A stretch of 64,000 nt of DNA from Dehalococcoidia bacterium (GCA_965197585.1 OZ240215.1:1024001-1088000), one strand, 5' to 3'; positions 22,195-63,014 are shown, counted from the first letter of the stretch. The notes: generated from the letters alone by a model not told the origin. Translations and numbers: made by a program.

Positions 22195-22210
22195 TCTTAC
22201 CCACCCCCCG

Positions 22211-23513: not shown

Positions 23514-24269
23514 CTAGCTGAGGTGCCTCTCGAAGAAGTCCCAGATCCTGGCCCAGCCGTCGACAGCATGCTCTACGCGGTAGGCGGGGCGATGGTAGTA
23601 AAAGAAGCCGTGGCCCGCGTTGGGATACCTGTGGAACTCGTAGTTCTTCCCGTGCTTCTTCAGCTCGGCTTCATGAATGTCTACCTGCTCCGGCGTTGGA
23701 GATTGGTCATCCAAGCCGAAGAGCCCGAGGATGGGGCACGAGACGTTCGCAGTGTAGTCGATTGGAGCGACAGGGTTCTTGTCGTTTAGCTGGTCCTTGG
23801 ACATGACGACTCCCCCGCCCCAGCAGTCGACCCCGGCATCGAATCCCGACTCCCGGCCCACGGTTAACATGACGTGTCGGCCGCCGGAGCAAGTACCGAA
23901 CACGCCGACCTTGCGGTTGTGGTACGGCAGGACCCGGAGGTATCTCATAGCCCCTACGATGTCACCGACAGCCTGATCATCGGGGACACCACCGTCGGCC
24001 CAGACCCTGGCGCCAACGTCTTCAGGGTCGCCGTGACCCTCGCGATGATAGAGATTTGGTGAGATGGCCGCGAAGCCGTGGTGCGCGAACCGGCGCGCGG
24101 CCTCCCTGTACCACTCGTCCCAGCCGGGCAGGTGATGGATGAGCACCACGCCCGGGAAGGGGCCGCTGCCCAGCGGACGGGCGAAGTAGGCGTTGATAGA
24201 GTCTCCGTTGTGTCCATGCATGGTTATGGTCTCGGCCAGCATGCCTTCGTACATATTCGTCTGGTACAT
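23514..24269 (-). CDS. Dienelactone hydrolase family protein
   Basis: GTCSGG nucleophile, GLFGLDD and AGHGF motifs; GGAGG RBS. Confidence 0.9.
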   Translation of the reverse strand: MYQTNMYEGMLAETITMHGHNGDSINAYFARPLGSGPFPGVVLIHHLPGWDEWYREAARRFAHHGFAAISPNLYHREGHGDPEDVGARVWADGGVPDDQAVGDIVGAMRYLRVLPYHNRKVGVFGTCSGGRHVMLTVGRESGFDAGVDCWGGGVVMSKDQLNDKNPVAPIDYTANVSCPILGLFGLDDQSPTPEQVDIHEAELKKHGKNYEFHRYPNAGHGFFYYHRPAYRVEHAVDGWARIWDFFERHLS

Positions 24270-24321
24270 AAATCGCCTCCTTGAGTTCTGGGAGCTTTAC
24301 TTGGTCTGTGGCCGGGGTACG

Positions 24322-25311: not shown

Positions 25312-25477
25312 TGTTGTTCTCCGTGTGAGGGGTGGGGGCGGGGATGAGGTTATTCTAATGGGAGGGGGGTGGGTGAGCAATGGAGTCGTTCATAGCTAGG
25401 GGAGTCCTGTGTCGGGGCACGGTGACGATGGAGAATAGAAGGAGTGGGAAGCTAATGGAGGAGCGCAGGTGAGCCGG

Positions 25478-30025: not shown

Positions 30026-30286
30026 ATGAGAACTACCTTGACTTTGGACAATGATCTGGCCGAGGCGCTCAAAGAGCGATCCCGTCTCCTGGACGTGCCT
30101 TTCAAGCAAGTCGTGAACGACGTACTGCGTCGAGGGCTTTCGCTTGGCACAATTAAGGAAGCCCCGGCGAAATACAGGGTGAAGCCCAATCGGAGTGGCT
30201 TCCTTCCCGGTGTAGATCCATTGAAACTGAACCAACTCAACGACGAGCTTGAGGTCCAAGACTTCCTCGAATCGGAGCGCCGGTGA
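30026..30286 (+). CDS. vapB: VapB-like RHH antitoxin (DUF2191-like)
   Basis: MRTTLTLDND...FKQVVN..LRRGL; overlaps the PIN gene by 4 nt. Confidence 0.8.
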   Translation: MRTTLTLDNDLAEALKERSRLLDVPFKQVVNDVLRRGLSLGTIKEAPAKYRVKPNRSGFLPGVDPLKLNQLNDELEVQDFLESERR

Positions 30287-30708
30287 TTGTCCCCGACCTC
30301 AACCTGCTAGTCTACGCCCACAATGATTCCACTCCCTTCCATGACCCTGCGCTAGTATGGTGGGAAGGGCTGATTAACGGCTCTGAGAGGGTGGGGGTGC
30401 CGTGGATTGTTTTAGCAGGATTTGTGAGGTTGATGACGCATCGTCGGATGCTGGCGAATCCTGTTACGACCACCCAGGCAATAGACTACATTCGCGAGTG
30501 GTTCCGGTTTCCACACGTTATGCCGATCAATCCTGGAGTCGGTCACCTGGACCACTTTCAGAGGAACCTGAAGGCTGCCGGAGTGGGCGGAAACCTTGTT
30601 ACCGACGCCCATATCGCTGCCCTCGCCATGGAATACCAGGCTGAAGTACATTCCAACGACACTGATTTCAGCCGCTTCCCCGGCCTCCGTTGGCGTAATC
30701 CCCTTTAG
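30283..30708 (+). CDS. vapC: VapC PIN-domain toxin
   Basis: PDLNLLVYA, DAHIAALA and SNDTDF.RF motifs. Confidence 0.9.
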   Translation: MIVPDLNLLVYAHNDSTPFHDPALVWWEGLINGSERVGVPWIVLAGFVRLMTHRRMLANPVTTTQAIDYIREWFRFPHVMPINPGVGHLDHFQRNLKAAGVGGNLVTDAHIAALAMEYQAEVHSNDTDFSRFPGLRWRNPL

Positions 30709-36143: not shown

Positions 36144-38165
36144 TCAACCCCAGACCTTCCACCAGGGACGTTCGGGGCTGAGGCGCGTGCCTAAGAATTC
36201 CTCCAAGCTTTTGCGGTTCAGTACCGTGCGTCCTCCGCTGCTGGCATCTTCGTCTATAAGAGTCGAGGGGACGTCATCCCAGTCAAAGCCTCGCCTGCCA
36301 AACGCATCCCGAGGCTCCCAAACGATAATTCTGTCGCCATCCGCGGTCCAACCGTTAGGCGCCTCTCCCTCACCTTTAGCGTAGGCTGATTTTCTTAGTA
36401 GGTTTTTTAGGCGTGCCTTGACCCGGTCGTACCGTTTTTCCGCATAGGAGAGCCAAGTTACTGAGTTAAGCCATTTGGGAGGGGTACCGGTGATGGATTC
36501 TGCGAGGATGGCGCTTATAACGCCCGAAGATAGGGCGAGCCAGTCCGGCGGGAGTCGGTCTTTCTCCAACAGGTCCATAACCTCCGCCAGGTAACGGCGG
36601 TACAAATGGCCCGTGAGTGCTCTGCGCATCTCTTGTATCCGACCCTGCAGCTTTTGGCGTAACTCCTCGTTGTGGGCAGGCAAAGCCGTTGTTGTGTATA
36701 TCATCAAACTGCGCTTGACGACTTCATCGGGAAAGGACTGCGGCTCTGCGTTCATGGAGAGAATGAAACCCGGATGCTCCTCGGTGTCGGGATGGAGCTC
36801 ATTCTTGATCATGTCTCGGCCGTGACGGTTGAAGGCGTTTCGTCCGATATCGTCGAATACGACGGGAAATCGCTTGTATCCGTATTGGAGCCCGCGTAGC
36901 TGTGAAGTGGTAAAGCTCCGCTTGTCCAGCGTATGAGCTATGCCGAACATGGACGTCATAAGGGTATCCACCAAGGTAGTCTTTCCGCAGTTGGATTTAC
37001 CAAAAACGATGGCAAACGATGGATAGCGGATTACGTCACTGTCCTGTAGCAGCGCAAGAGAGCGCATGTCGCAAATGAACGGCGAGAAGTAGAGCCACGA
37101 GGCCAGTATGAAGTAGTCTCGTTGCAGGCGTGACACGTCGCCTTCAAATGCTCCTTCATAATTCTGGAAGTACTCCAATATCAACTTTGCGTCGCGTTCA
37201 ACTAGTCGAGTGTCCCATTCCAGGGGGAAGAGTTCGCCTGACAGCGAGGCGGTGCGGTTGGCCCTGTCGATGGAGAAGTAGCGGTTGTCGGCCTCCTCCG
37301 CGGACTTGACCAGCTTGATGCGGCTTATCTCCCGCTTCACCTCGGGGGTGATTCTTTGGATGCCGTTGCTGATGGCGGGAGCCGCCGCGGACAAGCGCGG
37401 GGCCAGGACGGCTGCTACTTTTTCTACCCGTTGAATCTGCACCGGCATCGTTGTATGAGACTCGGCGGGCTTGGGCGCTTCTATTATGAGGGTTCCTGAT
37501 ATATCGGACAGTACGGGAGTGTCCGGCACCTCGATTTCTGCCTTGGTTATGTGATCCTCGGGCAGCTTGATTTCGTCGGACGCCGAGTCCCTGATTGCCT
37601 CGTACATTCGGTTGTAATGAGCCCACGCGGCTTCGTCATCATCGAAGATGACCAAGGTCTCGGGCTGCCTGCCTGAGAAGGCTTGCTCGGAGAGGTTGGC
37701 AGACCCGACGATTACGCGGTTGTGGCCTTCAGCGTTGGAAAGCAGGTAAATCTTGGCGTGAGCGATGGCCTTTCGAAGGACCCGGAATCGGGCCTGTCCA
37801 GCGTGCACCTTTTCGAGAATGTGAACGTGCCTGTCATCCTTCAGGCCCATGATGGCGGCACGCGTATCACCTACCACCACCTTCTGAAAAGCGAGGATAT
37901 TCTTGATGTCCCTCAGCGTCCCTTCATAGCCAAATACGCACTCGAAAGAGTTGAAGGAATAGTTATCCAGCATCCGCACGATTGCATTGACGCTTGCGGA
38001 GTAGGTGAGGACCCGCAGCTGGTCATAACTTTCAAAGAGGGACCAATCGAACTGCCGCTCGCTCAGGAATCGGGCGTTGACGACACGCAAACCGGAACCG
38101 TCGTCCAACTTAAGTATGGACTGGCTCGCGTTATCGCCGTTGGGTTCAGGCGTGAACATGTCCAT
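36144..38165 (-). CDS. PLD (HKD-type) nuclease domain fused to a P-loop ATPase
   Basis: HAKIY...VGSANLS..A...E (PLD); GKSNCGKT Walker A, VVFDD Walker B, ILSMN sensor-like, VVKR. Confidence 0.8.
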   Translation of the reverse strand: MDMFTPEPNGDNASQSILKLDDGSGLRVVNARFLSERQFDWSLFESYDQLRVLTYSASVNAIVRMLDNYSFNSFECVFGYEGTLRDIKNILAFQKVVVGDTRAAIMGLKDDRHVHILEKVHAGQARFRVLRKAIAHAKIYLLSNAEGHNRVIVGSANLSEQAFSGRQPETLVIFDDDEAAWAHYNRMYEAIRDSASDEIKLPEDHITKAEIEVPDTPVLSDISGTLIIEAPKPAESHTTMPVQIQRVEKVAAVLAPRLSAAAPAISNGIQRITPEVKREISRIKLVKSAEEADNRYFSIDRANRTASLSGELFPLEWDTRLVERDAKLILEYFQNYEGAFEGDVSRLQRDYFILASWLYFSPFICDMRSLALLQDSDVIRYPSFAIVFGKSNCGKTTLVDTLMTSMFGIAHTLDKRSFTTSQLRGLQYGYKRFPVVFDDIGRNAFNRHGRDMIKNELHPDTEEHPGFILSMNAEPQSFPDEVVKRSLMIYTTTALPAHNEELRQKLQGRIQEMRRALTGHLYRRYLAEVMDLLEKDRLPPDWLALSSGVISAILAESITGTPPKWLNSVTWLSYAEKRYDRVKARLKNLLRKSAYAKGEGEAPNGWTADGDRIIVWEPRDAFGRRGFDWDDVPSTLIDEDASSGGRTVLNRKSLEEFLGTRLSPERPWWKVWG

Positions 38166-44500: not shown

Positions 44501-45181
44501 ATGCTTACGTACAAGGGTCGGGAGATACCCGAGACCTTCGCCGAGATAGTCGACCCGAAGCACACCGTTTTGATAGTCCACGAGATGCTAAACGACTTCC
44601 TTAACCCGAACGGCGAGTTCGCCAAGACCATCCCCGACAACGGGCTGGTGAAGTGCCTTCCCGAACAGATTGGCCCGACAGTTAACCTGCTCAACGAGGC
44701 CCGGGCCGCCGGTGTGAAGGTTATATACGTCGGCTGGACGAACTACCCCGACAACAGCACCCGTGCGGACCCCGAGATCCGGCTCGCCTACGATCAGATC
44801 ATGGACGGGACCTACGTCATGCAGCGGTGCCTGATGGAAAACACCTGGGGCCACGACGTGATAGACGAACTCAAGCCCGCGCCCGGAGACCTTGTCATCA
44901 ACAAATACAAGAGAGACGCATTTGCAGGCACCAGCCTCGAAGCGATATTGCAGTGGAACCGGATCAAGACCTTCATAATCGTGGGGATAGGCGTGCACGT
45001 CGGAATCATCCCGACGGTTAGCAATGGGATGAACAAGGGCTACTTCACGGTTGCACCTGAGGACTGCATGATCTCCCACGAGCCGGAGTGGATTGAAGCC
45101 TCGATGAAGTTCTTCAACATGTGGGGCTTCACAAACCCTTCTACGGACCTGATCGCTGCTTGGAAGGGTGAGGGGAGCTAG
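44501..45181 (+). CDS. Isochorismatase/cysteine hydrolase family protein (divergent)
   Basis: HEMLNDF, TWG...IDELKP..GD.VI.K...DAF.GT.L motifs. Confidence 0.82.
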   Translation: MLTYKGREIPETFAEIVDPKHTVLIVHEMLNDFLNPNGEFAKTIPDNGLVKCLPEQIGPTVNLLNEARAAGVKVIYVGWTNYPDNSTRADPEIRLAYDQIMDGTYVMQRCLMENTWGHDVIDELKPAPGDLVINKYKRDAFAGTSLEAILQWNRIKTFIIVGIGVHVGIIPTVSNGMNKGYFTVAPEDCMISHEPEWIEASMKFFNMWGFTNPSTDLIAAWKGEGS

Positions 45182-46785
45182 GCGGAACGCGAGGCCTCTC
45201 CCTGGAGCATAGTCTCCAGGACGTCGTTGGGGCCTACGGAGCCGAGGAGAGCCCCGGACTCGCGGTCTACCACCGGGAATACCGAGATGGCGTGCTCTGC
45301 CATCTGCTCCAGGAAGTCGTCGAGGGGTTCGTCGGGGTAGGTGAGGACAGGACTGCGGTTCAGCAGGCTGCCGATACGGATGTTCGGCCAGGTATCTTGC
45401 GGCAACCGGCGCACCCTGCGAAGCGAGAGGGTCCCGGCCAACTTCCCCTGACCCTCGGTGATTACGTAGTCCTGGCGTTCATGTCCTGCCCACAGCTCCA
45501 TGAACTGCTGCACCGTCAGGTTGGCATTGGCGAAGCGCCGCCCCTTTTCCAGGATGTTGTTGACGGTGAGTCCCTGGAGAGAGAATCGGGCGAAGGAAGG
45601 CACGATTGAGGTCGGGAGGGTTGCCCGTTGGGTTTCGTCTGTTCTCCTAATGGTAAGTCCCATGAGTGGAGGCACTACAAATATGAAGGCGATCATGAGG
45701 AGCGTTAGCAGGGAGAACATCTCCCGCGAAATCACTTCGTGTTCCAGGAGAATGTGAAGGAAAGCTATTTCGATCACTCCTTTCCCCATGATGCCGGAAG
45801 CCACCGCGAGTCGACGCGACAATCGGGCCACCGTGACTCCCATCAAAGACCCTGCGGCTTTGGCAAATATCACCACTGGGATGACGGTTGCAAGGGTCGA
45901 GGCGGGCAAATTGGTGAAGGAAAGGTCCACGTGAGTCCCGGCCGAAGCGAAGAACAAGGGAATGAATACGCCTTGGGACAGGCCGCGAATCGAGGGTAGG
46001 ATTTCGTTACGGAGTCGGCGGGGAAGGCCCGAGTTGACCATGCCGAATACCAGGGCGGCCAAGGCCTCGTCCATCCCGATCTCGTGGGCGCCCCAGACCA
46101 CTATGAACAGGCTGCCTACCATAAGTGCAGAGGCAAGCTGGGGCGCTCCGATAATCCTTCTCAAGGAGACAAGGACCCGCGGTACAACCTTCGCTGATAG
46201 CACCCATGACGCAACTACAAACAGAATGATCTCTCCGAGCAGGACCGCTATTTTCCAGCCCCCCAGCCCGCCGGGATGCGACGATTCCTCTAGCGCGAAA
46301 CCCGCAACCAATAGGCCGACAATCTCGACAATTACCACGGTGGTGAAGATTTCCAGGCCAACTGAGTCTTTCAACTTGCCGAGGTCTCCCAGCACGCGGG
46401 CCGCAATGCCCAGGCTCGAGAGTCCCATCAGGGAGGCCAGGGTGACGGCGTTGGGTGCGGAGAGGTCTATCAGGTAGAGGAAGACCAGCAGGTTGGCGGT
46501 AAATGGGACGGCGAAGCTGATGAGAGCAGCGACGAAGAAGCGGCCACGCAGGGTCCCGACGAAACCGGATATGTCAATCTCATCGATTCCGATGAGGAAG
46601 AAAAGAAAGAGGACCCCAACCTCGAAGAAGAGCTTGGCTTCCTCGCCGGGCTCAAACCAGATGCCCAATATGATGCCCACGACGAGGTAGGCCAAGAGGG
46701 AGCTCTGTTTGAAGCGGACAGCCGCGCCCTCCAGCAGTTTGGCGCATACCAGGACGAGGCCAATGATCAGGAAATCGCTGGTCAT
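45178..46785 (-). CDS. Cation:proton antiporter with C-terminal CBS pair
   Basis: Multi-TM region, FIPLFF and GKG.I motifs; CBS-like YPDEPL...FPVVD. Confidence 0.85.
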   Translation of the reverse strand: MTSDFLIIGLVLVCAKLLEGAAVRFKQSSLLAYLVVGIILGIWFEPGEEAKLFFEVGVLFLFFLIGIDEIDISGFVGTLRGRFFVAALISFAVPFTANLLVFLYLIDLSAPNAVTLASLMGLSSLGIAARVLGDLGKLKDSVGLEIFTTVVIVEIVGLLVAGFALEESSHPGGLGGWKIAVLLGEIILFVVASWVLSAKVVPRVLVSLRRIIGAPQLASALMVGSLFIVVWGAHEIGMDEALAALVFGMVNSGLPRRLRNEILPSIRGLSQGVFIPLFFASAGTHVDLSFTNLPASTLATVIPVVIFAKAAGSLMGVTVARLSRRLAVASGIMGKGVIEIAFLHILLEHEVISREMFSLLTLLMIAFIFVVPPLMGLTIRRTDETQRATLPTSIVPSFARFSLQGLTVNNILEKGRRFANANLTVQQFMELWAGHERQDYVITEGQGKLAGTLSLRRVRRLPQDTWPNIRIGSLLNRSPVLTYPDEPLDDFLEQMAEHAISVFPVVDRESGALLGSVGPNDVLETMLQGEASRSA

Positions 46786-47696
46786 GCTGCGAGGCAGGGC
46801 AATGCAGCAGCCAGGGCATTAATGTGGTCGGGCGTGGTGCCGCAGCACCCACCTATGGCCCGCGCTCCGAGCCCACTCCACTCCTTGGCGTAATCCAGAT
46901 ATTCCTCGGGGGACATCGACTCTTCAAAGTCCCATCCCACGCCTTGATACACGGCGCCCTGTGCGTAGGCGCCTATTGGCATATTGTGGTGTCCGGCCAG
47001 CTGATTGAGGGCAGCCGTGACGTACGGGGCCTGGCAGCAGTTGAGGAATAGCACCGACGCGCCCGCATCTCTAACCGCGGCCTGAGCGTCCAGGATGCTT
47101 TCCCCTGACTTGACCCGGCCCTCCTCGTCGACCACGAATCCGGCCCAGGCAGGCATCCCGGCCTCAACGGCGGCCTTAACCCCCGCGACAGCCTCGTGGA
47201 TTTTGGTGCATGTCTCGACGAGGATTACGTCGACACCCGCTTGAGCCAGGACACGGACCTGCTCCCGATAGGCGGACAAGCATTCATCGTAAGACAGTAC
47301 GGCGTCGGGATTGTAGGACTGGCTGAGGGGGCCCAGGGAGCCGGCGACGATTACTTCACGGTCGGGGGCTGCGGCCCGGGCCTCTAGGGCGGCCTTTGCG
47401 GCCAGCTCGTTGATCCGTACCATCTCCGCCTCTGCCTTCGCCTTGGATATCCAGCCGATGTGGGTCAACTTGCCGGTGTTGCAGTTATAAGTGTTGGTAA
47501 TTGTTACTTCAGCCCCGGCACGGATAAAGTCTTCGTGGATCTCCCGAATGCCTTCCGGGGACTCCAGCATCGCCGCTACCGAGAGCTCCGACGACCCTGC
47601 AGCGATGCCATGCCTTTTGATTTCGGTGCCCATGCCGCCGTCGAGGATGACGGCGTCGCCCCGGGCCAGTTTGGCGGTCAACGTAGCGAGGCTCAT
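46782..47696 (-). CDS. Homocysteine S-methyltransferase family protein
   Basis: ILDGGMGTE, AGSLGP, LNCC and IGGCCGTTP motifs. Confidence 0.92.
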   Translation of the reverse strand: MSLATLTAKLARGDAVILDGGMGTEIKRHGIAAGSSELSVAAMLESPEGIREIHEDFIRAGAEVTITNTYNCNTGKLTHIGWISKAKAEAEMVRINELAAKAALEARAAAPDREVIVAGSLGPLSQSYNPDAVLSYDECLSAYREQVRVLAQAGVDVILVETCTKIHEAVAGVKAAVEAGMPAWAGFVVDEEGRVKSGESILDAQAAVRDAGASVLFLNCCQAPYVTAALNQLAGHHNMPIGAYAQGAVYQGVGWDFEESMSPEEYLDYAKEWSGLGARAIGGCCGTTPDHINALAAALPCLAA

Positions 47697-47714
47697 TGCG
47701 GCACCCCCTATGTG

Positions 47715-48416
47715 CTAGTCTCTCATCCCTTCCAGTACGGTCGCGATACCCTTCTGCAGGTCCTCGAACACCTCGCGGACGCTGCGCCGTGCGTCGATGG
47801 TCTCAAAATCGTACTGTTTGGAGAGGCTGCGAAATTCCTCGATGAGCGACCCCTGGTAGCGGACGAAGCTGGCGTAACGATCGGGCTCCCGAAGGAAGTC
47901 GTGCCCCGACTCCCAGTGATCGAGCTCTCGATTAGCCATGACGCGGGGAATCAGGTGCACCAAGTCCACGTCCAGGAAATAGATTTTATCCGGTACCATT
48001 GCGAACTCCAGCACGTCGTCGAGCCATCTGGCGGGGACGCCTCGAACCCTGGCACGCGCCATTATGGAGAAGATGTAACGGTCGCCCAGGATGACCATTC
48101 CGGCCTCCAGCGCTGGCATAATGCTCCTCTCCATTCGGTCCCAGAAATCGGTGGCGTAAAAGAGGTTAAGGGTAAGGTAGTCAAGGATATGTCCCCGCTT
48201 GGCGCGGTCTATCCCGCTGCCCGTCAGCGAGGAACGCCTGAATCCCGTGTCGGAAACGGCAAAACCTTCTGTCTCCAGCCATTCCTTGAGCAGCGCTATC
48301 TGGGTGGACCGCCCGACACCGTCGGTCCCTTCGATCACGATGAGGCGGCCCGGCAGCGGTTTCTCCGCCAGCTTGAGGGGGGTGTGACCGTAGAATGTTG
48401 GAATCTTCATCAGCAT
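47715..48416 (-). CDS. Thymidylate kinase-like protein B (P-loop GVGRST)
   Basis: LIVIEGTDGVGRSTQI and LGDRY motifs; lacks the Tmk REP motif. Confidence 0.8.
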   Translation of the reverse strand: MLMKIPTFYGHTPLKLAEKPLPGRLIVIEGTDGVGRSTQIALLKEWLETEGFAVSDTGFRRSSLTGSGIDRAKRGHILDYLTLNLFYATDFWDRMERSIMPALEAGMVILGDRYIFSIMARARVRGVPARWLDDVLEFAMVPDKIYFLDVDLVHLIPRVMANRELDHWESGHDFLREPDRYASFVRYQGSLIEEFRSLSKQYDFETIDARRSVREVFEDLQKGIATVLEGMRD

Positions 48417-48459
48417 ATCCTCATAGCGGTATGATCGCGCAAGTGGCTGTAGTGGGAGG

Positions 48460-49284
48460 CTACCCCTCGGTAAGAATGGGATCGGTCAGGCGCTGATATC
48501 CAGTGGGGGGCAAATAGCGGCCTGTTAACCCGGTGCTGGACAGAGCGTCAGGTACGCTGTGGCTGTCGAACTGCATAATTCCCGGGAGCAGGGGCTCGAC
48601 GTACTTTCTGACCTTTTGTTGCTGCGCGGCTATCGTCTGAGTGGCGTCTATGGTTACTAGGCCGTACTCATCCGTGAGCCTGCCGTATTCCTCCAGGAGG
48701 CGGCCCTGAAACTTGCGGAAAGACTCCTCTCGGCTGGAGGAGAGCCCTAGGTCCTGCCCCGACTCATAGAAGCCAAGCTGGTCGCGGCCTGTGACTATCC
48801 GGCGGATCGATTCGTCCAGGGGAACTTTGAAATAGAAGGCCAGGGAGGGCCGGATAGCGAAAGAATAGACGCGGCGCAGCCATTCTCCGTTGACCCCGCG
48901 GGCTGTGTCCCTGGCAAGGGCGGTGTAGACATAACGGTCGGCTAGAACTATGGTACCCGACTTCAGGGCGGGTATAACCTGCGTGTAGACGCGGTTGGCG
49001 AAGTCAGCGGCGTGGATCAAGCTGAAGGACATGGGAGTCAGCATTCTCTCCTGCTTGCCCCGTTTGGTAGTCCGCTTGACGATTGGTGAGGAGTTCCACT
49101 CCGTGAAAATAGTGACGTAACCAAGCCGCTTCAGCCATTTGCCCAGCAGATCAATCTGGGTGCTCTTGCCGGAGCCGTCTATGCCCTCGACGATGATCAG
49201 GCGGCCAGGGTACTTGCCATCTTGTGGATGATTCCCGTACCTCTGGCCCATTTGGAAGTTCGCGCTCAGGTCGTTATCCGTCAT
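48460..49284 (-). CDS. Thymidylate kinase-like protein A (P-loop GSGKST)
   Basis: LIIVEGIDGSGKSTQI and LADRY motifs; start reassigned to MTDND, 2 nt after the ppx stop. Confidence 0.8.
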   Translation of the reverse strand: MTDNDLSANFQMGQRYGNHPQDGKYPGRLIIVEGIDGSGKSTQIDLLGKWLKRLGYVTIFTEWNSSPIVKRTTKRGKQERMLTPMSFSLIHAADFANRVYTQVIPALKSGTIVLADRYVYTALARDTARGVNGEWLRRVYSFAIRPSLAFYFKVPLDESIRRIVTGRDQLGFYESGQDLGLSSSREESFRKFQGRLLEEYGRLTDEYGLVTIDATQTIAAQQQKVRKYVEPLLPGIMQFDSHSVPDALSSTGLTGRYLPPTGYQRLTDPILTEG

Positions 49285-49286
49285 CT

Positions 49287-50909
49287 CTACCCTCGTACGA
49301 TGTGCAAAGGTTGGTTGAACTCTGCATTCCAGCGTTCCTGAAGATGCGGGGCTGAGGCCCGGGCCCAAGCCGGGGTGACTATAGTGACTAATTCCTCCCC
49401 GGAAGCGTTTGGAGTCTCACTTTTCTCCGGCGAAATGGTAACACATTCCGGCGAAACATCAGGCGGCAAACGGCGCTCGATTTCGTCGGTAACCAGCAGG
49501 ATGGCAGCTGCCTGTCCTACAAACCGCTTGTCGGTTGGTGTCAACGCATCCGAACGTAGGAAGGGCCTTATAAGAATCTTGTCCTCGGCAGCTAGCAGTA
49601 TTGCGGCTATCTGGGCGCATTCCCTGTGGGTAAACCCTGGCAGATCAGACCGGGTGACCAGGGCGGCGGCCCTGTCGTACCGGTTATAGAAATCAATTGA
49701 GCTGCCTACGTCCAGAAGAAGGGCAGCGCATCGGAGAGACGAGGTTAGACGGCGGTGGCGGCCCTGCCATACGGCCTCTGCGATACGGCCACTGATGTTG
49801 GCCCTCCGTGCCCCGCGCCGGGAGAACCGAGGAGCGAAGCGCTGGGTCAGGTCGCGTAGGCCCTCGGATCGGATCTTGGAGCGTTTCGGCAGAGAGATAG
49901 TCTTGCCCGTTGGTATAGGGCTTGGATGCCGAGCCAGACCCTCCCGCAACCCCTGCCCCGATACGATTATCCCCTTGGCTCCTGTGTGGGATATAAGAGT
50001 TTGTGCTATCAACGCACCCCCGACAATAGAGTGGATCCGCCTGCGGTTCATGCCGGAGATGAGCGCTCGCTCCTCTCTCGTTGAAGAGGCCATCATATCC
50101 ATGAGAATTGCGAGCCCGTTGGCGCTGATGTAGTAGCCGTGCATTTTGGGAACAGGATGGGCAGTCCGGCGGCGGTCCAGCTTCGCCAGGAGTCTCATAG
50201 AGCCTCCGGACCCGACCAGCGCTCCTCCCTTGGAGAGAGGCGGGATTTTGGCCTCGGAGAAAAGGTCTGCGGCGTGTTGGGCGGCAGCGGCCAGGTCTTC
50301 CGGCGAGGGTTTGTCGGTCAGCCGGAACAGGTTGGCAAAACGCAAGCTGCCGAGCCGCAGGGAATCGAGAGTCTTCAGAGAACGGCGGGCGAATTGCACT
50401 ATCTCGGTGCTGCCGCCGCCCAGGTCCGCGAGGAGACCCCGGGCCACGGGCAGCCCGTGAATGGCACCGATGAAGCAGTAAGCGGCCTCCTCATATCCCT
50501 CGATTATTCGAAATGCGACGCCGTGCTTTTTGGTCGCGGCCTCTGTCACTTGGAAGGAATTGAGAGACTCCCGTAAGGCCGCCGTGCCCACACCATGCAC
50601 TTCCGTGATGCCGTATCCCGAACAGACTTGGGCAAAGTCCTCGATTGCGTCTATGACCCCTGAAACACCTTCTGAGTCCAGAGTCCCGTCGGCGTCGACG
50701 TGAGACATCAGGTTCAGGTTCAGTACTTGCTGGGCTATTGGTTCTATGCCCCCGCCGGGATTCAGGCGAATGATCTCGGCCCTGGCCGAGCCCGACCCTA
50801 TGTCGATAACAGCGGTCAGGGAGTCGTTGGATAGAGGGGTCGGGCCATGCGCCTCGGCGTGGAGGTCATGACGCGGCCGAGTTTGGAAGGAGCGAAGTTC
50901 AGGAACCAA
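49287..50909 (-). CDS. ppx: Ppx/GppA exopolyphosphatase family protein
   Basis: IDIGSGS, GTAALRE, EEA, DLGGGSTE and GLREG motifs; degenerate C-terminal HD region; start uncertain. Confidence 0.88.
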   Translation of the reverse strand: MVPELRSFQTRPRHDLHAEAHGPTPLSNDSLTAVIDIGSGSARAEIIRLNPGGGIEPIAQQVLNLNLMSHVDADGTLDSEGVSGVIDAIEDFAQVCSGYGITEVHGVGTAALRESLNSFQVTEAATKKHGVAFRIIEGYEEAAYCFIGAIHGLPVARGLLADLGGGSTEIVQFARRSLKTLDSLRLGSLRFANLFRLTDKPSPEDLAAAAQHAADLFSEAKIPPLSKGGALVGSGGSMRLLAKLDRRRTAHPVPKMHGYYISANGLAILMDMMASSTREERALISGMNRRRIHSIVGGALIAQTLISHTGAKGIIVSGQGLREGLARHPSPIPTGKTISLPKRSKIRSEGLRDLTQRFAPRFSRRGARRANISGRIAEAVWQGRHRRLTSSLRCAALLLDVGSSIDFYNRYDRAAALVTRSDLPGFTHRECAQIAAILLAAEDKILIRPFLRSDALTPTDKRFVGQAAAILLVTDEIERRLPPDVSPECVTISPEKSETPNASGEELVTIVTPAWARASAPHLQERWNAEFNQPLHIVRG

Positions 50910-51178
50910 GACGCTGTAGTTTTCTCAGAAGACTTGATCCTTGTCGTACACAGAATGGCGGGCTTGCGAGCATGGCTCAGATAAAGGGTGCGTGTTTCAG
51001 TTCCGATGATAATACAGGCCTTCAAAGGGGCGCAATGTGTCGGGACGCCCCCCGGCTTTCGAATCATCGCCTTGCCCTTGATTCCTATACACACGACTGA
51101 CAATGTCATTCATATACGCTAATTCAGTACAATGCCCATAAATGCATTAGTTCAAACATGGCATAGGCATATGACTCT

Positions 51179-54100
51179 TTGACTCCTTCATACAATCCCC
51201 GAATCGGAGCAGCGCTGGCCGTTCTCGTCATTGCGGCGAGTGTTTTCCTGGGATGGCCGGGATTACCCCTGCCCGCATGGGCGAATGGGGATGACTGGGG
51301 GATGGTCAAAATAAGTGAGGTCACCAAGACCGAGGCCAAGGTCACGATCACCTTCGTCGACGAAACCGCAACCGGTCTTGTTCATTGGCGATACCGCAAC
51401 ACCATGCCCGAGGGACAATGGCTCGGACTTGACGGGGTCTCGGTCATCGGCGGTATCTCCGTATTCGATATTGCTATGCTGAGCCCCGGGACCGATTATG
51501 AGTTACAAGTGTCTCTCGACGGGGATTTTTTGCAGACTGACATCCTATCTAAGAATTTCACAACCCTACCCCCCGACCCATCCGTTTCTGAAGTGATTGT
51601 TGAGAACGTCACCCTGACGGAGGCGACCGTCGTTATAACCATTGCCAACCCAGGTACTTCTTCCAAGACGGTACACATCCAATACCGCACCGACGACACC
51701 CAGCCCTGGAGCGATCCGCCAATCACCATAACCACCTCTACCGATACAGCAACGAAAACGCTGCTCAGCCTAAATCCCGGTACCCGCTACGAAGTGGAGG
51801 CCTCCCTGGGAGTCGGTTTCCTGTCCACCGAGACTGAATCCACGACTTTCACCACCCTCCTCCCAAGGGTCTCGGGTGTGAGCCTAGAAAATGTCACCAC
51901 TTCCAAAGCTACAGTCACGGTAACCATCGCCGAACCGGGGCCCGGTGAAAACAAGGTCTACTTGCGTTACAGCATCGTGCCTTCAACACAGATCTCTTGG
52001 ATTATCCCTTCTCCGAAGTCGGTGGTCGGAGATACAACAACCTTCGCGCTGACAGGTCTGGCCCCGTACTCCGAATACGAAGTGCAGGTGTCTCTGGATG
52101 GCTCATTCACCTCAGAGGTCGAGTCCGCCACCTTTACAACGGCAGCTCCCCCGAGCATCGGTTCGGTGAACATGGCAGATGTCGAGCAGAATTCAGCCAG
52201 TGCTATTGTGAGCATCTTCGACTCGGATGGGACCGCCGTAACCGTCCACCTGCGCTACCGCGAGACACCCTCTGGAGCTTGGATTGCGATCCAACACGAG
52301 ATAACTACGACTGAAGCTGCGGAATTCTCATTGTCGGGCCTGATGCCGGACACAGAATACGAGGTGGAAGTGTCGCTGGATAACGGCTTCTCTCTGGGTC
52401 GGTCCGCCACTTTTACTACCGAAGCAATGACGTCCAGGCCATCCTCACCAGTGGTTCGGGTCTCCGGGCTCTTCACAGAAGACATAACGCCTGGCTCGGT
52501 GACCGTGGTTGTATTGATCGCAGGCCCGGAAAACCGAGTAACGGTGAATTTGCGGTATGGGATCGAAGGCACGAATACGTGGAGCCGTACACTTCGCCGA
52601 ACCACCGCTACGGACACCGCTCCATTCGAGCTTGGAGGGCTGACGGCCGCCACGACTTACGATATAGAAGCGTCCCTATCCCCTGACTTTCCGGTCCACG
52701 AATCCGCGTACGATATCTTTACAACTGCCGCAATTAGTGTTTCGCGGCTCAGGCTGGTAGACATAACCGACACAGAGGCGACCGCGATTGCAGAGATTGA
52801 AGATCCCCAAGGCCAGACTACGGTCTTCGTGCGCTACATAGCCTTGGGAACGGGGGCTTGGAGCGAACCTCAAAGCCGAATTACTAGCTCCAATACGGTG
52901 CGTCTTTTCCTAGCGGGCCTCCTGCCGGATACTCAATACGAGGTGGAGGCCTCTTCAGAGGAGAGCTTCCCCGGTGATAACTCGGCACTCGAGACATTTA
53001 TCACCGAGCCCGCGCCCAGGGTCTCTGAGGCAAATGTGGAGGGCATCACCAATGTGTCCGCCACAATTGCAGTGGACATTGACAGCCCACAGGCTCAGAT
53101 GAAGGTATATCTGCGGTTCCGTGTCGAGGGTACAGGGACCTGGAGTACGACCAGAACCCGTACTACCTCCATACCCAGCGCTCGGTTTTCCTTAGCGGAC
53201 CTGAAGTCTGATACGGGATATGAAGTCGAGACGTCCCTTGACAAGGACTTCCCAGCAGACAGCACTGTATCTGTGGTCTTTTCTACGCAACCGAATCCCA
53301 AGGTCTCAGACGTGACAGTCGAGGACATAACGGAAAAGAGCGGGACTGCAATTGTGAAGATTAACGGGCCACAACCCCGGACAACGGTCTATCTGCGCCA
53401 CCAAGCCCATGGAGACTCGGCTTGGAGCGTGCCTCAAACCCGAACAACCTCTTTGGACACTGCGCGATTTACTTTGTCGGGTCTGATGCCGGACACCGAG
53501 TACGAAGTAGAGGTTTCACTGAATCACGACTTTGAGGAGCTTATTTCTGAGACCTTCCTTACGGCTGCAAAAAGGCCGAAGCCATCCTCCGTAACAGGAG
53601 GGCCTATTACGCAGACCACGGCCTCTATCATTGTGCATATAGACGACCCTCAAGGCAGTTTGACAATCCATCTGCGTATCCGAATTTGGGGCTCAAATAC
53701 TTGGAACAATCCTGAAACCCTCGTAACGTCGGCCTCCGCCGCTCCCTTCGACCTGAAACGCCTTACAGGAGGCACAACCTACGAAGTCGAGGTGTCCCTT
53801 GAATCAGCCTTCCCTCCTGCGGATACTGTTTCGGCCATCTTCACGACCACCCCTGCGACTAAGGTGTCGGGGGTGAATGTCGGAAGTGTTGCTGCAATAG
53901 AAGCCACCGTCACGGTCACAATTTCTCACTCTGAAGGGAATATCCGGACGGTCTATATGCGCTACCGCGGGCTGCCTGAGGGGGACTGGAGTGCAAGCCA
54001 AACGGAAACGGATGCGTCAACAGTGGATGCCCTGTTACCGGGCTTGATTCCCGATACTGAATACGAGGTACAGGCTTCGTTGTATGAGACTTTTCCGGCT

Positions 54101-54589
54101 ACCGACACCCAAGTACAGAGGTTCAATACTCTTTCCGCACAGCCCACGGAAATGCCAACCCCCGTGCCCGCAGCAACACCCACTCATACGCCTACCCCCG
54201 AACCCACATCAACACCCGAGCCCATATTTACCCCCGAACCAACCCCCACATCCACACCCAAGGCCGAGCCCACCATGACCCCCACTCCTCCACCCTCCCC
54301 AACACCCACGCCTCCACCGTCTCTCACCCCCACTCCCACGGCAACTCCCAGCCATACCTCCACCCCGACCAATACGCCCAAACCCGCCGAGACGCCTGCT
54401 CCCACGCCTACCACAATCCTAACTGCACCTGCACTATTTTCACCCACCTCTGCCCCTACCTCGACATCTCAGGCGGAGGAAGAAGAGACCGGGACAGACT
54501 TAGCCCTCGTGATCACCATAGTTACATTGGTCATTGCCTTTGCTATGGTGCTCGGCTTCTTCGTATACCGTCCGAGAACGGCGAGTTAG
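51179..54589 (+). CDS. Large surface protein: signal peptide, 10 FN3-like repeats, Pro/Thr stalk, C-terminal TM anchor
   Basis: Ten L.P.T.YEVE.SL motifs about 95 aa apart; PT repeats at about 54140-54470; hydrophobic C-terminus followed by YRPR. Confidence 0.85.
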   Translation: MTPSYNPRIGAALAVLVIAASVFLGWPGLPLPAWANGDDWGMVKISEVTKTEAKVTITFVDETATGLVHWRYRNTMPEGQWLGLDGVSVIGGISVFDIAMLSPGTDYELQVSLDGDFLQTDILSKNFTTLPPDPSVSEVIVENVTLTEATVVITIANPGTSSKTVHIQYRTDDTQPWSDPPITITTSTDTATKTLLSLNPGTRYEVEASLGVGFLSTETESTTFTTLLPRVSGVSLENVTTSKATVTVTIAEPGPGENKVYLRYSIVPSTQISWIIPSPKSVVGDTTTFALTGLAPYSEYEVQVSLDGSFTSEVESATFTTAAPPSIGSVNMADVEQNSASAIVSIFDSDGTAVTVHLRYRETPSGAWIAIQHEITTTEAAEFSLSGLMPDTEYEVEVSLDNGFSLGRSATFTTEAMTSRPSSPVVRVSGLFTEDITPGSVTVVVLIAGPENRVTVNLRYGIEGTNTWSRTLRRTTATDTAPFELGGLTAATTYDIEASLSPDFPVHESAYDIFTTAAISVSRLRLVDITDTEATAIAEIEDPQGQTTVFVRYIALGTGAWSEPQSRITSSNTVRLFLAGLLPDTQYEVEASSEESFPGDNSALETFITEPAPRVSEANVEGITNVSATIAVDIDSPQAQMKVYLRFRVEGTGTWSTTRTRTTSIPSARFSLADLKSDTGYEVETSLDKDFPADSTVSVVFSTQPNPKVSDVTVEDITEKSGTAIVKINGPQPRTTVYLRHQAHGDSAWSVPQTRTTSLDTARFTLSGLMPDTEYEVEVSLNHDFEELISETFLTAAKRPKPSSVTGGPITQTTASIIVHIDDPQGSLTIHLRIRIWGSNTWNNPETLVTSASAAPFDLKRLTGGTTYEVEVSLESAFPPADTVSAIFTTTPATKVSGVNVGSVAAIEATVTVTISHSEGNIRTVYMRYRGLPEGDWSASQTETDASTVDALLPGLIPDTEYEVQASLYETFPATDTQVQRFNTLSAQPTEMPTPVPAATPTHTPTPEPTSTPEPIFTPEPTPTSTPKAEPTMTPTPPPSPTPTPPPSLTPTPTATPSHTSTPTNTPKPAETPAPTPTTILTAPALFSPTSAPTSTSQAEEEETGTDLALVITIVTLVIAFAMVLGFFVYRPRTAS

Positions 54590-54652: not shown

Positions 54653-54928
54653 ATGCCGAGGATACAACTGATACTCTCCGACGAAGAGCGAGAGCTGTTC
54701 AAGGCTCAAGCACATCGAGAGGGCAAGCCCCTTGATGAATGGCTGAAGGCTGCCGCTCGCCAGCGTCTCGGGTGGGCACCCCCTGCAACCAGGCCTGGCA
54801 GAATTGAAGACCTTGACGCGTTCTTCCGTAAGTGCGATGAGATTCCAGGACCCGAACGTGAACCCGACTGGGAGGAGTACAAGAAGCTGATTAATGAGGT
54901 GCGTCCGTCAGTAGCGGACGCCTCGTGA
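54653..54928 (+). CDS. RHH-type antitoxin
   Basis: MPRIQLILSDEER..F..QA.REG..L..WL..AA; overlaps the PIN gene. Confidence 0.75.
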   Translation: MPRIQLILSDEERELFKAQAHREGKPLDEWLKAAARQRLGWAPPATRPGRIEDLDAFFRKCDEIPGPEREPDWEEYKKLINEVRPSVADAS

Positions 54929-55308
54929 TTTTCGTCGACACCAACGTCTTCATTTATGCTGTGGGAAGCAGTCATCCGTTGAAGAGTCCAGCGGAGGAGT
55001 TTTTCCGTAGCGCTCGGGACAGCGGCACGTCCCTAGTTACCTCTGTGGAAGTACTCCAAGAGTTGCTCCACGTCTATCGACGCACTGGTAGACTTCAACA
55101 ATTGGATGATGCGATGTCACTGGTCACAAGTGACATCGCACAAGTGTGGCCTTTGGAGTGGGCGGATGTGGACAAGGCCCGACAACTCCACGATAGCTAT
55201 CCTGGACTGGCGACTCGAGACCTCTGCCACCTGGCAAGTTGTAGGAATCGGGGCGTTGAGACGATTATGACCTTCGACCAGCCTCTGCTTTCGGCGGCTA
55301 GCGCCTGA
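54925..55308 (+). CDS. vapC: VapC PIN-domain toxin
   Basis: FVDTNVFIYA, EVLQE, RDLCHLA and TFD motifs. Confidence 0.9.
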   Translation: MIFVDTNVFIYAVGSSHPLKSPAEEFFRSARDSGTSLVTSVEVLQELLHVYRRTGRLQQLDDAMSLVTSDIAQVWPLEWADVDKARQLHDSYPGLATRDLCHLASCRNRGVETIMTFDQPLLSAASA

Positions 55309-57619: not shown

Positions 57620-57645
57620 GATATGGAAATGCCGCGCCCGGCCTC

Positions 57646-58461
57646 TCACCGACCCGGCGGCCGCTGATCGGCTGGCAGTTCGCTTCCGCCGGTCCCGTGG
57701 GTGAAATCTTCACCCCATTCGTAGGGCAGGTCGGTGATCCGGCCCGGCTCATCGAGCGTGTTCAGAGTGCCGAGAGCGTCCTTGATGATGTTCATCTGGA
57801 GCTCTCTGTCGAACGGCTTGCCACATTGATGTCCCAAGGGGAAGTTGACGAACACCGGCCGGGGTGGCTTCACCTGAGCCATCATATCCCTGACCGAGCC
57901 TACGTACACGGTGCTAACGCCTACCTCTTCAACTACCCTCGCTAGCAGTCCAACGGACTGGTGGTCCAGCGGTCAGGCAGGTACACAGAAGAGGACGTCA
58001 ACCTTGGCCTCCTTGAGTTTTCTGGCGATCTCGGCCGCCAACTGTGTCTGGAGAGCTGTACGCTTGTACATTCTCCCCATTCCGAGTCCGTAGTTGATTT
58101 CGGCCAGTTCCCCTATATAGCCCTCCTGCTCCAACTCCCGGAATCTGTCTAAAGGCAAGATGACGTTGGGGTCCCGGTCGGCGTCACGGTGGTCATAATA
58201 GTTGTAGTTGATTATCAGGTCTTCGGTCGGGGTGTCTTTGGGGATCTCCCGGTAGCTTAGCTCGCTTCTGGCCAAGGGGTCGAAAGGCTCCTGGTCCCTG
58301 CGGGACATCCCGGAGGAGCAGAGCAGCGCCACCTTCGCCTGGTCGAGCGGCTTCTCGAACGGGCTCCAGGTCGTGGTGCGGAACACTGACCACTTGTAGG
58401 GTGGAAACCCGTGGCCTTGATAATAGGCGTTGAGGTTGGCTACGTAGTCTATGGGCTTCAT
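57646..58461 (-). CDS. GrdB/PrdB-like selenoprotein (271 aa, in-frame UGA = Sec at 57973-57975)
   Basis: Two predicted ORFs lie in one frame joined across TGA: ...VLFCVPA-U-PLDHQSVGLLARVVEEVGVSTV...PPR..FVNFPLGH.CGKP; D.DPNV..PLDR..EL..EG.IG; AAGGAGG RBS. Confidence 0.88.
57940..57971 (-). promoter_or_regulatory. Bacterial SECIS element
   Basis: After UGA: CGCUGG/CUAGCG lower stem, CAGUCC/GGACUG upper stem, GUU apical loop with G at +19. Confidence 0.8.
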
Positions 58462-58646
58462 CCATGACCTCCTTGTTATAGGGGCAATCCCCGCTCCGGC
58501 CTTTGCAGCCGTTTCAGCTTCTCTGGGGCCACCTCGACTGCTCCGGGGCTCCGTCAGCCTCACATTGACGACCATTTGCCGCCCGAGGCATCCCGGAACC
58601 GTTTGAGGGTCTACTCACTGAGGTTGTCGGGTCGATGTTAGCGACG

Positions 58647-58943: not shown

Positions 58944-59296
58944 TGGTGGAGACGGGGGAGGGTCGAACTCCCCGTCCAGAAGGTGGCCCCAGAGCGTCTA
59001 CAGGCTTAGACGGCACTTAAATTTCGCCCGCCGTATCGCAGCCGACGACGACAACGGAAGGCTAGCTGAATAGTCTTAACCTGTCCCTCACAGCATTAGG
59101 GCAGGAGCACCTCGATTTGCGTCGCCCTGAGACGGCCTTCGAGGAGAGGCCGAACAGGACGGGTTACCTAGTGTCTAGGCAGCCAGTGCGTACTGACGTT
59201 TGCCAGTTATGTTTTTGCCGCTGGTTTTACGAGTCCCACGGCGCCTCGGCCTGCAACCCTGGGTTACCGTGACTCCTGTCGAGCCCACGCGTCCCC
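58944..59296 (-). ncRNA. ssrA: tmRNA; tag peptide (A)GKRQYALAA* at 59175-59204
   Basis: 5' GGGGACGCG.GG.TCGAC; 3' T-arm GTTCGAC...TCTCCACCA; resume context ATAACT-GGC; adjacent to smpB. Confidence 0.95.
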
Positions 59297-59355: not shown

Positions 59356-59817
59356 TCAGCTCCGTCTTATGCCGATTTCTTTGAGGACCGCCCGCTGCAT
59401 CTGCCTATCGGCCTCCCGACGTGCGATGGCCGCTCGCTTGTCATAAAGTTTGCGGCCGCGTGCCACCCCGATCTCTATCTTCGCCTTATGGTTCTTGATG
59501 TAGAGCCTGAGCGGAACCAGGGTTAATCCCTTTTCCTGCACCTTGGATGAGAGGTAGTCGATCTGGCCGCGGTGCATAAGCACCTTTCTAGGGCGCATGG
59601 GCTCGTGGTTCGAACGATTGCCGTTGGAGTAAGGCGAAATGTGGGCGCCGTGGAGCCAAAGCTCGTCGTCTTCGGGGCGTGCGAATGCATCCCGGATATT
59701 GACCTTGCCGTCCCGGATCGACTTGATCTCCGTTCCCGTAAGCACGAGTCCTCCTTCGAACGACTCCAGGATGTCGTACTCAAAACGGGCCTTGCGGTTG
59801 ACGCTGATGGTTTTCAT
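59356..59817 (-). CDS. smpB: SsrA-binding protein
   Basis: NRKARFEY, GLVLTGTEIKSIR, GLTLVPL and GRKLYDKR motifs. Confidence 0.97.
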   Translation of the reverse strand: MKTISVNRKARFEYDILESFEGGLVLTGTEIKSIRDGKVNIRDAFARPEDDELWLHGAHISPYSNGNRSNHEPMRPRKVLMHRGQIDYLSSKVQEKGLTLVPLRLYIKNHKAKIEIGVARGRKLYDKRAAIARREADRQMQRAVLKEIGIRRS

Positions 59818-62663: not shown

Positions 62664-63014
62664 GGGACTTGGAGACCGGGTGGCCGCCCGCCTCGGCGGG
62701 AGGAAAGTCCGAGCTCCACCGGGAAGGATGCTGGGTAACTCCCAGGAGGGGAAACCCTACGGAAAGTGCCACAGAAACATACCGCCCGCCCATGGCGGGT
62801 AAGGGTGAAATGGCGAGGTAAGAGCTCACCAGTAGTCGGGAGACCGGCTAGCTGGGCAAACCCCATCCGGAGCAAGGCCAAATAGGAGGACAATGGGACC
62901 CGGCCCGTCCTCGGGTTGGCTGCTCGAGCCCGGCGGTAACGCCGGGCCCAGATAGATGGCCACCGTCCGCCTCAGGCGGATACAGAACTCGGCTTATAGG
63001 TCTCCGCAGGTCTC
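62664..63014 (+). ncRNA. rnpB: RNase P RNA (type A)
   Basis: GAGGAAAGTCCGAGCTC, AGTGCCACAGAAA, GGGCAAACCCC..GGAGCAAG and ACAGAACTCGGCTTA; P1 ggagacc/ggtctcc; TTGACC-17nt-TAGTCT upstream. Confidence 0.95.

Follow-up and report, generated by a model that had tools for sequence, protein, structure and literature searches.

A ppx gene and two thymidylate-kinase-like genes of a Dehalococcoidia bacterium probably form a polyphosphate operon of the PPK3 type

The window analysed here is a stretch of 64 kb from a Dehalococcoidia bacterium (GCA_965197585.1, OZ240215.1:1024001-1088000), and positions are counted from its first letter. Open reading frame (ORF) calling placed three genes head to tail on its minus strand, namely a gene of the Ppx/GppA family (ppx) followed by two genes, A and B, whose products resemble thymidylate kinase (Tmk). 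The subunit names given to A and B below are those of the catalytic (cPPK3) and regulatory (rPPK3) subunits of family-3 polyphosphate kinase (PPK3).

49287..50909, minus strand: ppx, exopolyphosphatase of the Ppx/GppA family, 540 amino acids from a putative TTG start
48460..49284, minus strand: A, Tmk-like, 274 amino acids from the ATG at 49284; predicted catalytic subunit, cPPK3-like
47715..48410, minus strand: B, Tmk-like, 231 amino acids; predicted second subunit of the regulatory type, rPPK3-like

The run is as tight as the initial annotation had described it. The ppx stop codon TAG is followed by the two letters AG and then by the ATG of A, leaving a gap of 2 nucleotides, and a GAGGG lies within the 3' end of ppx, ahead of that ATG. 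The gap between A and B measures 43-49 nucleotides, depending on which of two in-frame ATGs starts B, the one at 48416 (233 amino acids) or the one at 48410 (231 amino acids). The start at 48410 is the likelier one, because a GAGGA lies 7 nucleotides ahead of it and 231 amino acids is the commonest length among near relatives. Scanning positions 45000-51300 for promoters and terminators was uninformative: the single promoter-like site was on the wrong strand, and the four terminator-like sites did not exceed the yield of shuffled sequence.

The ppx product matched the Pfam family Ppx-GppA (PF02541) at 6.2e-46, with a further match to Ppx domain III (2.5e-05) below the Pfam cut-off for that domain. 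Its best NCBIfam model was the exopolyphosphatase-only model TIGR03706, matched at 225.8 bits and thus below the cut-off of 307. Orthologues scoring 500-585 bits lie directly before the A-type gene in three Dehalococcoidia loci (L001-L003). The Ppx/GppA family also includes pppGpp phosphohydrolases, and the initial annotation had named as an alternative an alarmone module, in which a GppA-type phosphatase would be joined by kinases acting on (p)ppGpp-like nucleotides. The GppA model NF008260 was matched at 99.8 bits, far below its cut-off of 624, and the preference for the exopolyphosphatase-only model speaks against this alternative, to which we return with the gene neighbourhoods.

Thymidylate_kin (PF02223) was the sole Pfam family matched at E <= 0.01 by A (3.8e-22, 79.3 bits) and by B (1.1e-20, 74.5 bits). 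Both scored below the cut-off of 83.25 bits of TIGR00041, the NCBIfam equivalog for deoxythymidine monophosphate (dTMP) kinase, A at 82.9 bits, within 0.4 bits of it, and B at 71.6 bits. The translations gave the motifs that had been noted at first: A has the P-loop GIDGSGKST (Lys40) and LADRYV, with DRY at residues 116-118, and B has the P-loop GTDGVGRST, in which Arg34 replaces the lysine, and LGDRYI, with DRY kept at 110-112. The two proteins are 35% identical over 224 columns, and the motif said to be private to them, YESGQD in A or WESGHD in B followed by SF..[FY]Q..L, does align. The REP motif of true Tmk is likewise lost. In an alignment with Thermus Tmk, TREPGG of the latter corresponds to TEWNSS in A, EWN replacing REP, and the glutamine of AYQ corresponds to Arg125; this comparison of the dTMP site covers these two sites, with dTMP-binding residues assigned after the available text of PMC12995831 and general background on Tmk. 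In B the letters REP occur only in FLREPDRY, far from the position of the Tmk motif.

By sequence, the best solved relative of both proteins was ST1543 (STK_15430). A matched it at 3.5e-52, against 1e-14 or weaker for solved true Tmk proteins (best 2.9e-14), and B matched it at 2.2e-32, against 3.1e-10 for the best true Tmk. The AlphaFold models, with a mean predicted local distance difference test score (pLDDT) of 86.3 for A and 87.6 for B, also had ST1543 as their best fold match, with a target-normalised template-modelling (TM) score of 0.88-0.93 at 42-44% identity for A, and a TM score of 0.89-0.93 at 33-34% identity for B. All of the top fold matches of both models were Tmk-fold proteins. 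What is shared with canonical Tmk (TIGR00041, for example E. coli b1098) is the fold, the lid region, DRY, PF02223 and, in A, the P-loop pattern GxDGxGK[ST]T, whereas A and B differ from it in falling below the equivalog cut-off, and A in having EWN for REP and arginine for the glutamine of AYQ. Compared with ST1543 and the Sulfolobus enzyme, A has some 25 additional residues at its N-terminus and a C-terminal tail of some 40. Residues 11-20 of the N-terminal segment were modelled at pLDDT 94. The tail (residues ~240-274; 48460-48570) has pLDDT below 50 from residue 254, and its SVPEAL...GL.GRY is conserved in the consensus of an alignment of near relatives (A2).

PPK3 was described in a 2024 preprint (10.1101/2024.08.28.610084) and a 2026 paper (PMC12995831), and the following is taken from the available text of the latter. 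The ppx operon of Sulfolobus acidocaldarius carries two genes annotated as thymidylate kinases, Saci_2019 and Saci_2020. Saci_2019 (cPPK3) makes polyphosphate (polyP) from ATP, and Saci_2020 (rPPK3) is inactive alone and boosts Saci_2019, best at a ratio of 1:1; neither has dTMP kinase activity, the real dTMP kinase of the organism being Saci_0893. The complex (SaPPK3) behaves as an alpha2beta2 assembly and is a reversible polyphosphate:ADP kinase, strongly favouring the direction in which ADP and polyP yield ATP and not using GTP as phosphoryl donor. Its operon includes SixA and CHAD genes. STK_15430 (PDB 5h70) is a cPPK3 homologue, and rPPK3 (Saci_2020, STK_15420) conserves neither the DRX arginine nor the basic cleft. 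The main hosts of PPK3 are Sulfolobaceae and Nitrososphaeraceae, to which 'a few bacteria' are added. Every predicted PPK3 operon, bacterial ones included, carries both subunits, and Data S1 assigns PPK3 to 4 of 83 Chloroflexota and 0 of 38 Dehalococcoidia assemblies (PMC12995831). The term 'unrecognised', which the initial annotation had applied to the module, consequently does not hold, as the kind has been described.

A different reading is that A, or A together with B, are real thymidylate kinases, tmk paralogues whose place beside ppx would be meaningless. The matches of both to PF02223 and the near miss of A at the equivalog cut-off fit such an assignment, close relatives are named 'dTMP kinase', and the PDB entries of ST1543 (2plr, 4nzy, 4rzx, 5h70) bear that title too. 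However, Saci_2019 and Saci_2020 lacked dTMP kinase activity while Saci_0893 had it (available text of PMC12995831), both the REP motif and the AYQ glutamine are replaced in A, the pairing and the polyP neighbourhood recur across many phyla, and the fusions are with phosphate-related domains, as set out below. We consider it very unlikely that either protein is a true Tmk.

In order to place the pair among its relatives, loci were collected by a scan of one genome per species, with an alignment (A1) of 28 A-type proteins as query. The scan yielded at least 600 stretches, at least 456 of which encode a relative, and the best 80 loci (L001-L080) were analysed, their gene content being read from stop-to-stop ORFs with domain coordinates. 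The best match was a Dehalococcoidia locus at 74% identity. The others came from further Chloroflexota and from Acidobacteriota, Nitrospirota, Planctomycetota, Armatimonadota, Thermodesulfobacteriota, Binatota, Bacteroidota, Actinomycetota, Myxococcota and others, mostly uncultured lineages, so that the pair occurs in at least 80 species-level bacterial genomes from a dozen or so named phyla (14 by the listed labels). An A-type gene was present in all 80 loci and an adjacent B-type gene in 79, the exception (L062) being cut by a contig end. A PPX gene lay within about 8 kb of the pair in 50. Writing c for the A-type and r for the B-type gene, the gene orders among the 80 loci were as follows:

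c-r: 29 loci
PPX-c-r: 21 loci
c-r-PPX: 12 loci
PPX (opposite strand)-c-r: 8 loci
c-r-PPX (opposite strand): 4 loci
r-PPX-c: 3 loci, all Planctomycetota (L013, L043, L061)
split genes or genes cut by a contig end: 3 loci

The recurrence of the window's own order in 21 loci, and of the pair in 79, argues that the ppx-A-B arrangement is not due to chance. In the three r-PPX-c loci the PPX ORFs are unusually long, 856-1076 amino acids by ORF calls.

The remaining ORFs within about 7 kb of the pair were clustered, and 24 of the 45 listed clusters were annotated with Pfam, by one representative each. The following neighbours recurred, again counted among the 80 loci:

SixA-like His_Phos_1: 35 loci
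CHAD: 31 loci
OmpR-type response regulator: 18 loci
ABC ATPase: 17 loci
PhoU: 10 loci
ABC permease: 8 loci
PstS-like: 7 loci
PPK2: 4 loci

At least one of PPX, SixA-like, CHAD, PhoU, PstS-like, PPK2 or a free Ppx domain III was found in 58 loci, and the neighbourhood in the relatives is that which the available text of PMC12995831 describes for PPK3. The same data bear on the alarmone module. Its case is the breadth of the Ppx/GppA family; nothing else spoke for it. The recurring neighbours are polyphosphate and phosphate genes (CHAD, SixA-like, PhoU, Pst and, in 4 of 80 loci, PPK2), no RelA/SpoT-type gene was present among the 24 annotated recurring neighbour clusters, and SaPPK3 did not use GTP as phosphoryl donor (available text of PMC12995831). 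A (p)ppGpp-like substrate thus appears extremely unlikely.

We also considered an anti-phage defence system acting on nucleotide pools, as A and B matched the PADLOC candidate model PDC-M51B at 33.3 and 32.9 bits. Both proteins matched the general Tmk model better (79.3 and 74.5 bits), the conserved neighbourhoods contained no defence-like gene, and the identity of 63-91% among the single-domain near relatives listed for A is housekeeping-like. We rejected this candidate because the PADLOC match is weak and generic, and we give it next to no credence.

Natural fusions provided a further line of evidence. Two Tmk-like domains share one chain in P0241, P0019, P0058 and P0293, and are joined there by Ppx domain III/HD in P0246, P0250 and P0254. 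Elsewhere a cPPK3-like domain is fused to SPX and DUF2252 (P0296), to an MFS transporter and DUF2252 (P0317 and P0323, the latter alone with APH), or to an InPase-type pyrophosphatase (P0300, P0332, P0334). P0268 is also among the fused cPPK3-like proteins. The fusion partners of the cPPK3-like domain are all phosphate-themed, and judging from these architectures the fusions independently support a joint function of the two Tmk-like proteins. The words 'SPX', 'DUF2252' and 'fused' are absent from the main text of PMC12995831. A comparable design is known from two-domain class II PPK2 (Pseudomonas aeruginosa PA3455), a polyP-dependent nucleotide kinase of the P-loop class, whose active module is helped to oligomerise by an inactive paralogous one (available text of PMC12995831). 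Unlike the window's genes, that enzyme is one fused chain and phosphorylates AMP, whereas A and B are separate genes with fused forms elsewhere, and the PPK2 family PF03976 gave no match to A or B at E <= 0.01.

Residue conservation distinguished the two protein types sharply. In the homologue search with A, 7646 of 8000 scored candidates were found at E <= 1e-10, and in a library clustered at 50% identity there were 309 representatives at E <= 1e-30 and 1853 at E <= 1e-10. Among the matches listed, the single-domain relatives were 63-91% identical to A, and the P-loop lysine was present in 120 of 120 (GIDGSGKST in 114, other lysine variants in 6). Across the 80 A-type locus rows, Lys40, Asp116, Arg117 and Tyr118 were each invariant. 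So were Trp63, Asn64 and Ser65 from the A-type-specific set, together with Asp126 and Arg167, and Glu62 (79 of 80) and His91 (78 of 80) were nearly so. Lysine or arginine occupied positions 70 (72 of 80), 74 (72 of 80) and 79 (58 of 80), and these basic residues are absent in B-type rows.

For B, 7452 of 8000 scored candidates lay at E <= 1e-10, and the matches listed were 67-99% identical to it; among them, GTDGVGR[ST]T was found in 119 of 120, with one off-pattern, and DRY in 120 of 120. Counts for the B-type loci refer to 74 rows, five B-type pieces shorter than 540 nucleotides having been left out. The P-loop residue was arginine in all 74, against lysine in all 80 A-type rows. Thirteen B-type pieces fell outside the first motif pattern; 11 of them cover the P-loop, and all 11 have the arginine, within GxD[ASCH]VGR[ST]T. 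The rest of the active site was kept as well: Arg92 in 71 of 74 rows, Asp110 in 74, Arg111 in 73, Tyr112 in 74, Arg119 in 74, Arg123 in 72, Arg156 in 73, and Glu167, Gly169 and Gln186 in 74 each. By contrast, B lacks the A-type Glu62, Trp63, Asn64, Ser65, His91, Asp126 and Arg167 as well as the basic positions 70, 74 and 79, while Ser66 of A is retained as Ser60 in 68 of 74 B-type rows.

The bacterial partner, as far as its sequence tells, is thus not the decayed form that the paper describes, its hallmark being instead the P-loop arginine. A term search of the main text of PMC12995831 and of its supplements, where the alignment figures are pictures, gave no mention of that change from lysine. 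Forms with a P-loop lysine but NKY, DQY or EQY in place of DRY do exist (P0280, P0344, P0354, P0350), and these appear to match the paper's description of rPPK3.

Such conservation raises the question of whether B might hold a second functional site, either a sensor, binding ATP/ADP or a polyP end, by which the direction of the reaction is set, or a second kinase that is slow and has another acceptor. The bacterial enzyme would then work otherwise than the Sulfolobus one; this concerns B only and is compatible with PPK3. The invariant P-loop arginine (74 of 74), DRY in 120 of 120 of the matches listed and active-site residues kept in 71-74 of 74 rows would be unexpected of a decayed site, and in the Sulfolobus regulatory subunit both the DRX arginine and the basic cleft are missing (available text of PMC12995831). 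On the other side stands the absence from B of the A-type-specific residues and of the basic positions 70, 74 and 79. Moreover, changing the Walker A lysine to arginine usually abolishes phosphoryl transfer, which counts against a second site in B. We regard this reading as possible but, on balance, rather unlikely.

The contact between the two proteins was modelled as a 1:1 complex, taking residues 20-240 for A with alignment A2 (68 rows) and using alignment A3 (69 rows) for B. Three runs scored 0.80, 0.76 and 0.75 (median 0.76) and the best control 0.01; 116 of 157 solved complexes attain the score mark, as do 2 of 215 mismatched pairs, and these counts serve as a rough guide only with the custom alignments used here. 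The runs agreed in at least 96% of contacts, with a partner pLDDT of at least 83. In the predicted interface the long helix 81-101 and residues 130-142 of A face residues 76-94 and 129-136 of B, and N-terminal residues 9-12 of B take part as well. A conserved FYGHTP stretch near the N-terminus of B touches A in the model. The arrangement is one that we take to be the pseudo-twofold of thymidylate-kinase homodimers. The complex model supports a contact between A and B, at the level of prediction.

Two trees were calculated. FastTree was run, unrooted, on 243 rows comprising A, B, the c and r pieces of at least 540 nucleotides from the 80 loci and representatives of the 50% clusters of 195-300 amino acids. 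It recovered a bacterial A-type clade of 119 leaves including A (support 89) and a bacterial B-type clade of 88 leaves including B (support 99). A quick IQ-TREE search (LG+G4, SH-aLRT) covered 88 rows, with 26 of the 80 loci and 33 representatives hand-picked for spread; E. coli Tmk, the only outgroup, had a very long branch (3.55 changes per column). Here A stood beside L001_c (98) within a 28-row Lys/DRY clade (91), and B grouped with L001_r and L003_r (99) within a 34-row Arg/DRY clade (99). Locus groupings seen in the A-type subtree, such as L011+L017, L013+L043, L018+L032, L075+L076 and L056+L063, recur in that of the B-type, a pattern that fits a pair which may have been inherited together. 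The DRX-less forms fell beside the B-type clade, with P0350 as its sister (94) and the wider group poorly resolved (89). P0358, a Sulfolobaceae cPPK3 representative (2.1e-87 to ST1543), lay in a grade neighbouring the bacterial A-type clade in the unrooted FastTree.

Taken together, these results make it very probable that A and B are the subunit pair of a family-3 polyphosphate kinase. ppx-A-B as a whole is, in all likelihood, a polyphosphate operon of the PPK3 type, in which A would be the catalytic subunit and B its paralogous partner. The support for this assignment is homology and context. It comes from ST1543 being the nearest solved protein for both A and B, far ahead of true Tmk, from the conserved pairing with PPX, SixA-like and CHAD neighbours, from the predicted A-B interface, and from a published experimental precedent with the same anatomy (available text of PMC12995831). 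The features of the family found in the window are a Tmk fold closer to cPPK3, the Walker A lysine and DRX arginine in A, the loss of the dTMP-site residues at the two positions compared, a paralogous second subunit in the operon and PPX directly upstream. As in SaPPK3, two paralogous Tmk-fold genes lie side by side and adjoin ppx, A combines an intact P-loop lysine and DRY with the absence of the dTMP-site motif, contact between the subunits is predicted, and the window's relatives have SixA-like, CHAD and PPX neighbours. By analogy with the SaPPK3 experiments, the initial proposal of a heteromer of one catalytic and one regulatory subunit taking the place of a PPK gains support.

Several points weigh against this assignment or set the window apart from SaPPK3. 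A Pfam scan of 59 ORF translations from the window found no SixA or CHAD gene, both members of the Sulfolobus operon, so that the window differs from it here. It also differs in its host, which is bacterial and presumably no thermoacidophile, the nearest relatives being Dehalococcoidia metagenome-assembled genomes. In 22 of the 80 loci no polyP or phosphate gene lay near the pair; six of these are contigs shorter than 7 kb, and full-length examples include L004 and L006-L009. ST1543 itself was deposited and published as a dTMP kinase, according to its PDB titles. The complex score may partly reflect likeness to solved dimers, since the interface appears to be that of Tmk homodimers. In the rooted tree, P0358 fell in an unresolved grade and was not sister to the bacterial A-type clade. 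Finally, B keeps DRY and has the P-loop lysine changed to arginine, whereas Saci_2020 and STK_15420 lose the DRX arginine, the feature by which the paper's available text characterises the regulatory subunit; the role of B may therefore differ from that of Saci_2020.

If A and B are indeed a PPK3, A would be a P-loop kinase of the Tmk fold whose second-substrate site has ceased to suit dTMP and instead accommodates a polyP chain by its end, and it would move phosphate reversibly between polyP and ADP/ATP. Should it behave like the Sulfolobus enzyme, it would mostly form ATP from polyP at a low ATP/ADP ratio, and build polyP only at a high ratio. B would bind A through the helices used in Tmk dimers and raise its activity by assembling the oligomer, and PPX, made from the same transcript, would degrade polyP to phosphate and balance the polyP pool. 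It is from the Sulfolobus work that the reaction and its direction are inferred, as are the stoichiometry and the activation by B, and the role of B is the weakest step, as its signature differs from that of the characterised regulatory subunit.

Two genes follow the module on the same strand:

46782-47696, minus strand: homocysteine S-methyltransferase, 18 nucleotides after B
45178-46785, minus strand: Na+/H+ exchanger with CBS domain, following the S-methyltransferase gene

In none of the 80 loci did a close counterpart of either gene stand next to the pair, for which reason both were left out of the module; distant S-methyltransferase matches numbered only three, at 25-26% identity. No PPK1, PPK2 or further Tmk-like gene was found among the 59 window ORF translations scanned with Pfam.

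Other features of the window were noted in passing:

51179-54589, plus strand: 1136-amino-acid protein divergent from ppx; its N-terminus is signal-like, and it further has a dozen or so fibronectin-III-like repeats, a stretch rich in Pro/Thr and a hydrophobic segment at the C-terminus
54653-55308, plus strand: small ORF and PIN-domain gene overlapping by 4 nucleotides, which look like a VapBC-type toxin-antitoxin pair
30283-30708, plus strand: second PIN-domain gene
36144-38165, minus strand: 673-amino-acid protein with a PLD-like/NgoFVII-type restriction endonuclease N-terminal domain
13079-25380: cluster of four luciferase-like monooxygenase genes and several amidohydrolase/hydrolase genes
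57622-58575, minus strand: GrdB-like ORF (Pfam GRDB, 2.4e-11), ending at a TGA right after ...FCVPA
58944-59296 (minus), 59356-59817 (minus) and 62668-63013 (plus): transfer-messenger RNA (144 bits) directly beside smpB, and bacterial class A RNase P RNA (290 bits)

When the TGA at 57973-57975 is read as selenocysteine, the GrdB-like frame stays open for 108 more residues, and its product is a candidate selenoprotein on the strength of this reading frame; Rfam reported no selenocysteine insertion sequence (SECIS) family at gathering score. SmpB, the transfer-messenger RNA and the bacterial RNase P RNA mark the window as bacterial. The monooxygenase and amidohydrolase content fits the Dehalococcoidia affiliation to which the nearest loci point, and presumably a SAR202-like one.

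In summary, the module is of a kind already known, to which the window contributes a bacterial member, as yet uncharacterised, of a Dehalococcoidia-like lineage. Three findings go beyond the available text of PMC12995831, namely how widely the family is spread among uncultured bacteria, the P-loop arginine that is invariant in the bacterial second subunit, and the fusions with phosphate-related domains. Speculatively, and with more doubt than confidence, the bacterial second subunit could be of a new kind, unlike the decayed Sulfolobus subunit, in which an invariant Walker A arginine in an otherwise fully conserved active site would serve as a sensor of the ATP/ADP ratio or of the polyP end, or as a slow second catalytic site setting the direction of the kinase; the family might, in addition, be a major, widespread bacterial polyP kinase and not a rarity. 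Automatic annotation names such genes 'dTMP kinase', and A comes within 0.4 bits of the NCBI cut-off, with the consequence that polyphosphate metabolism would be missed in lineages that perhaps lack PPK1 or PPK2. The control that a second subunit exerts on the direction of a reversible polyP/ATP kinase could conveniently be studied in a mesophilic bacterial PPK3, which might also serve for ATP regeneration.

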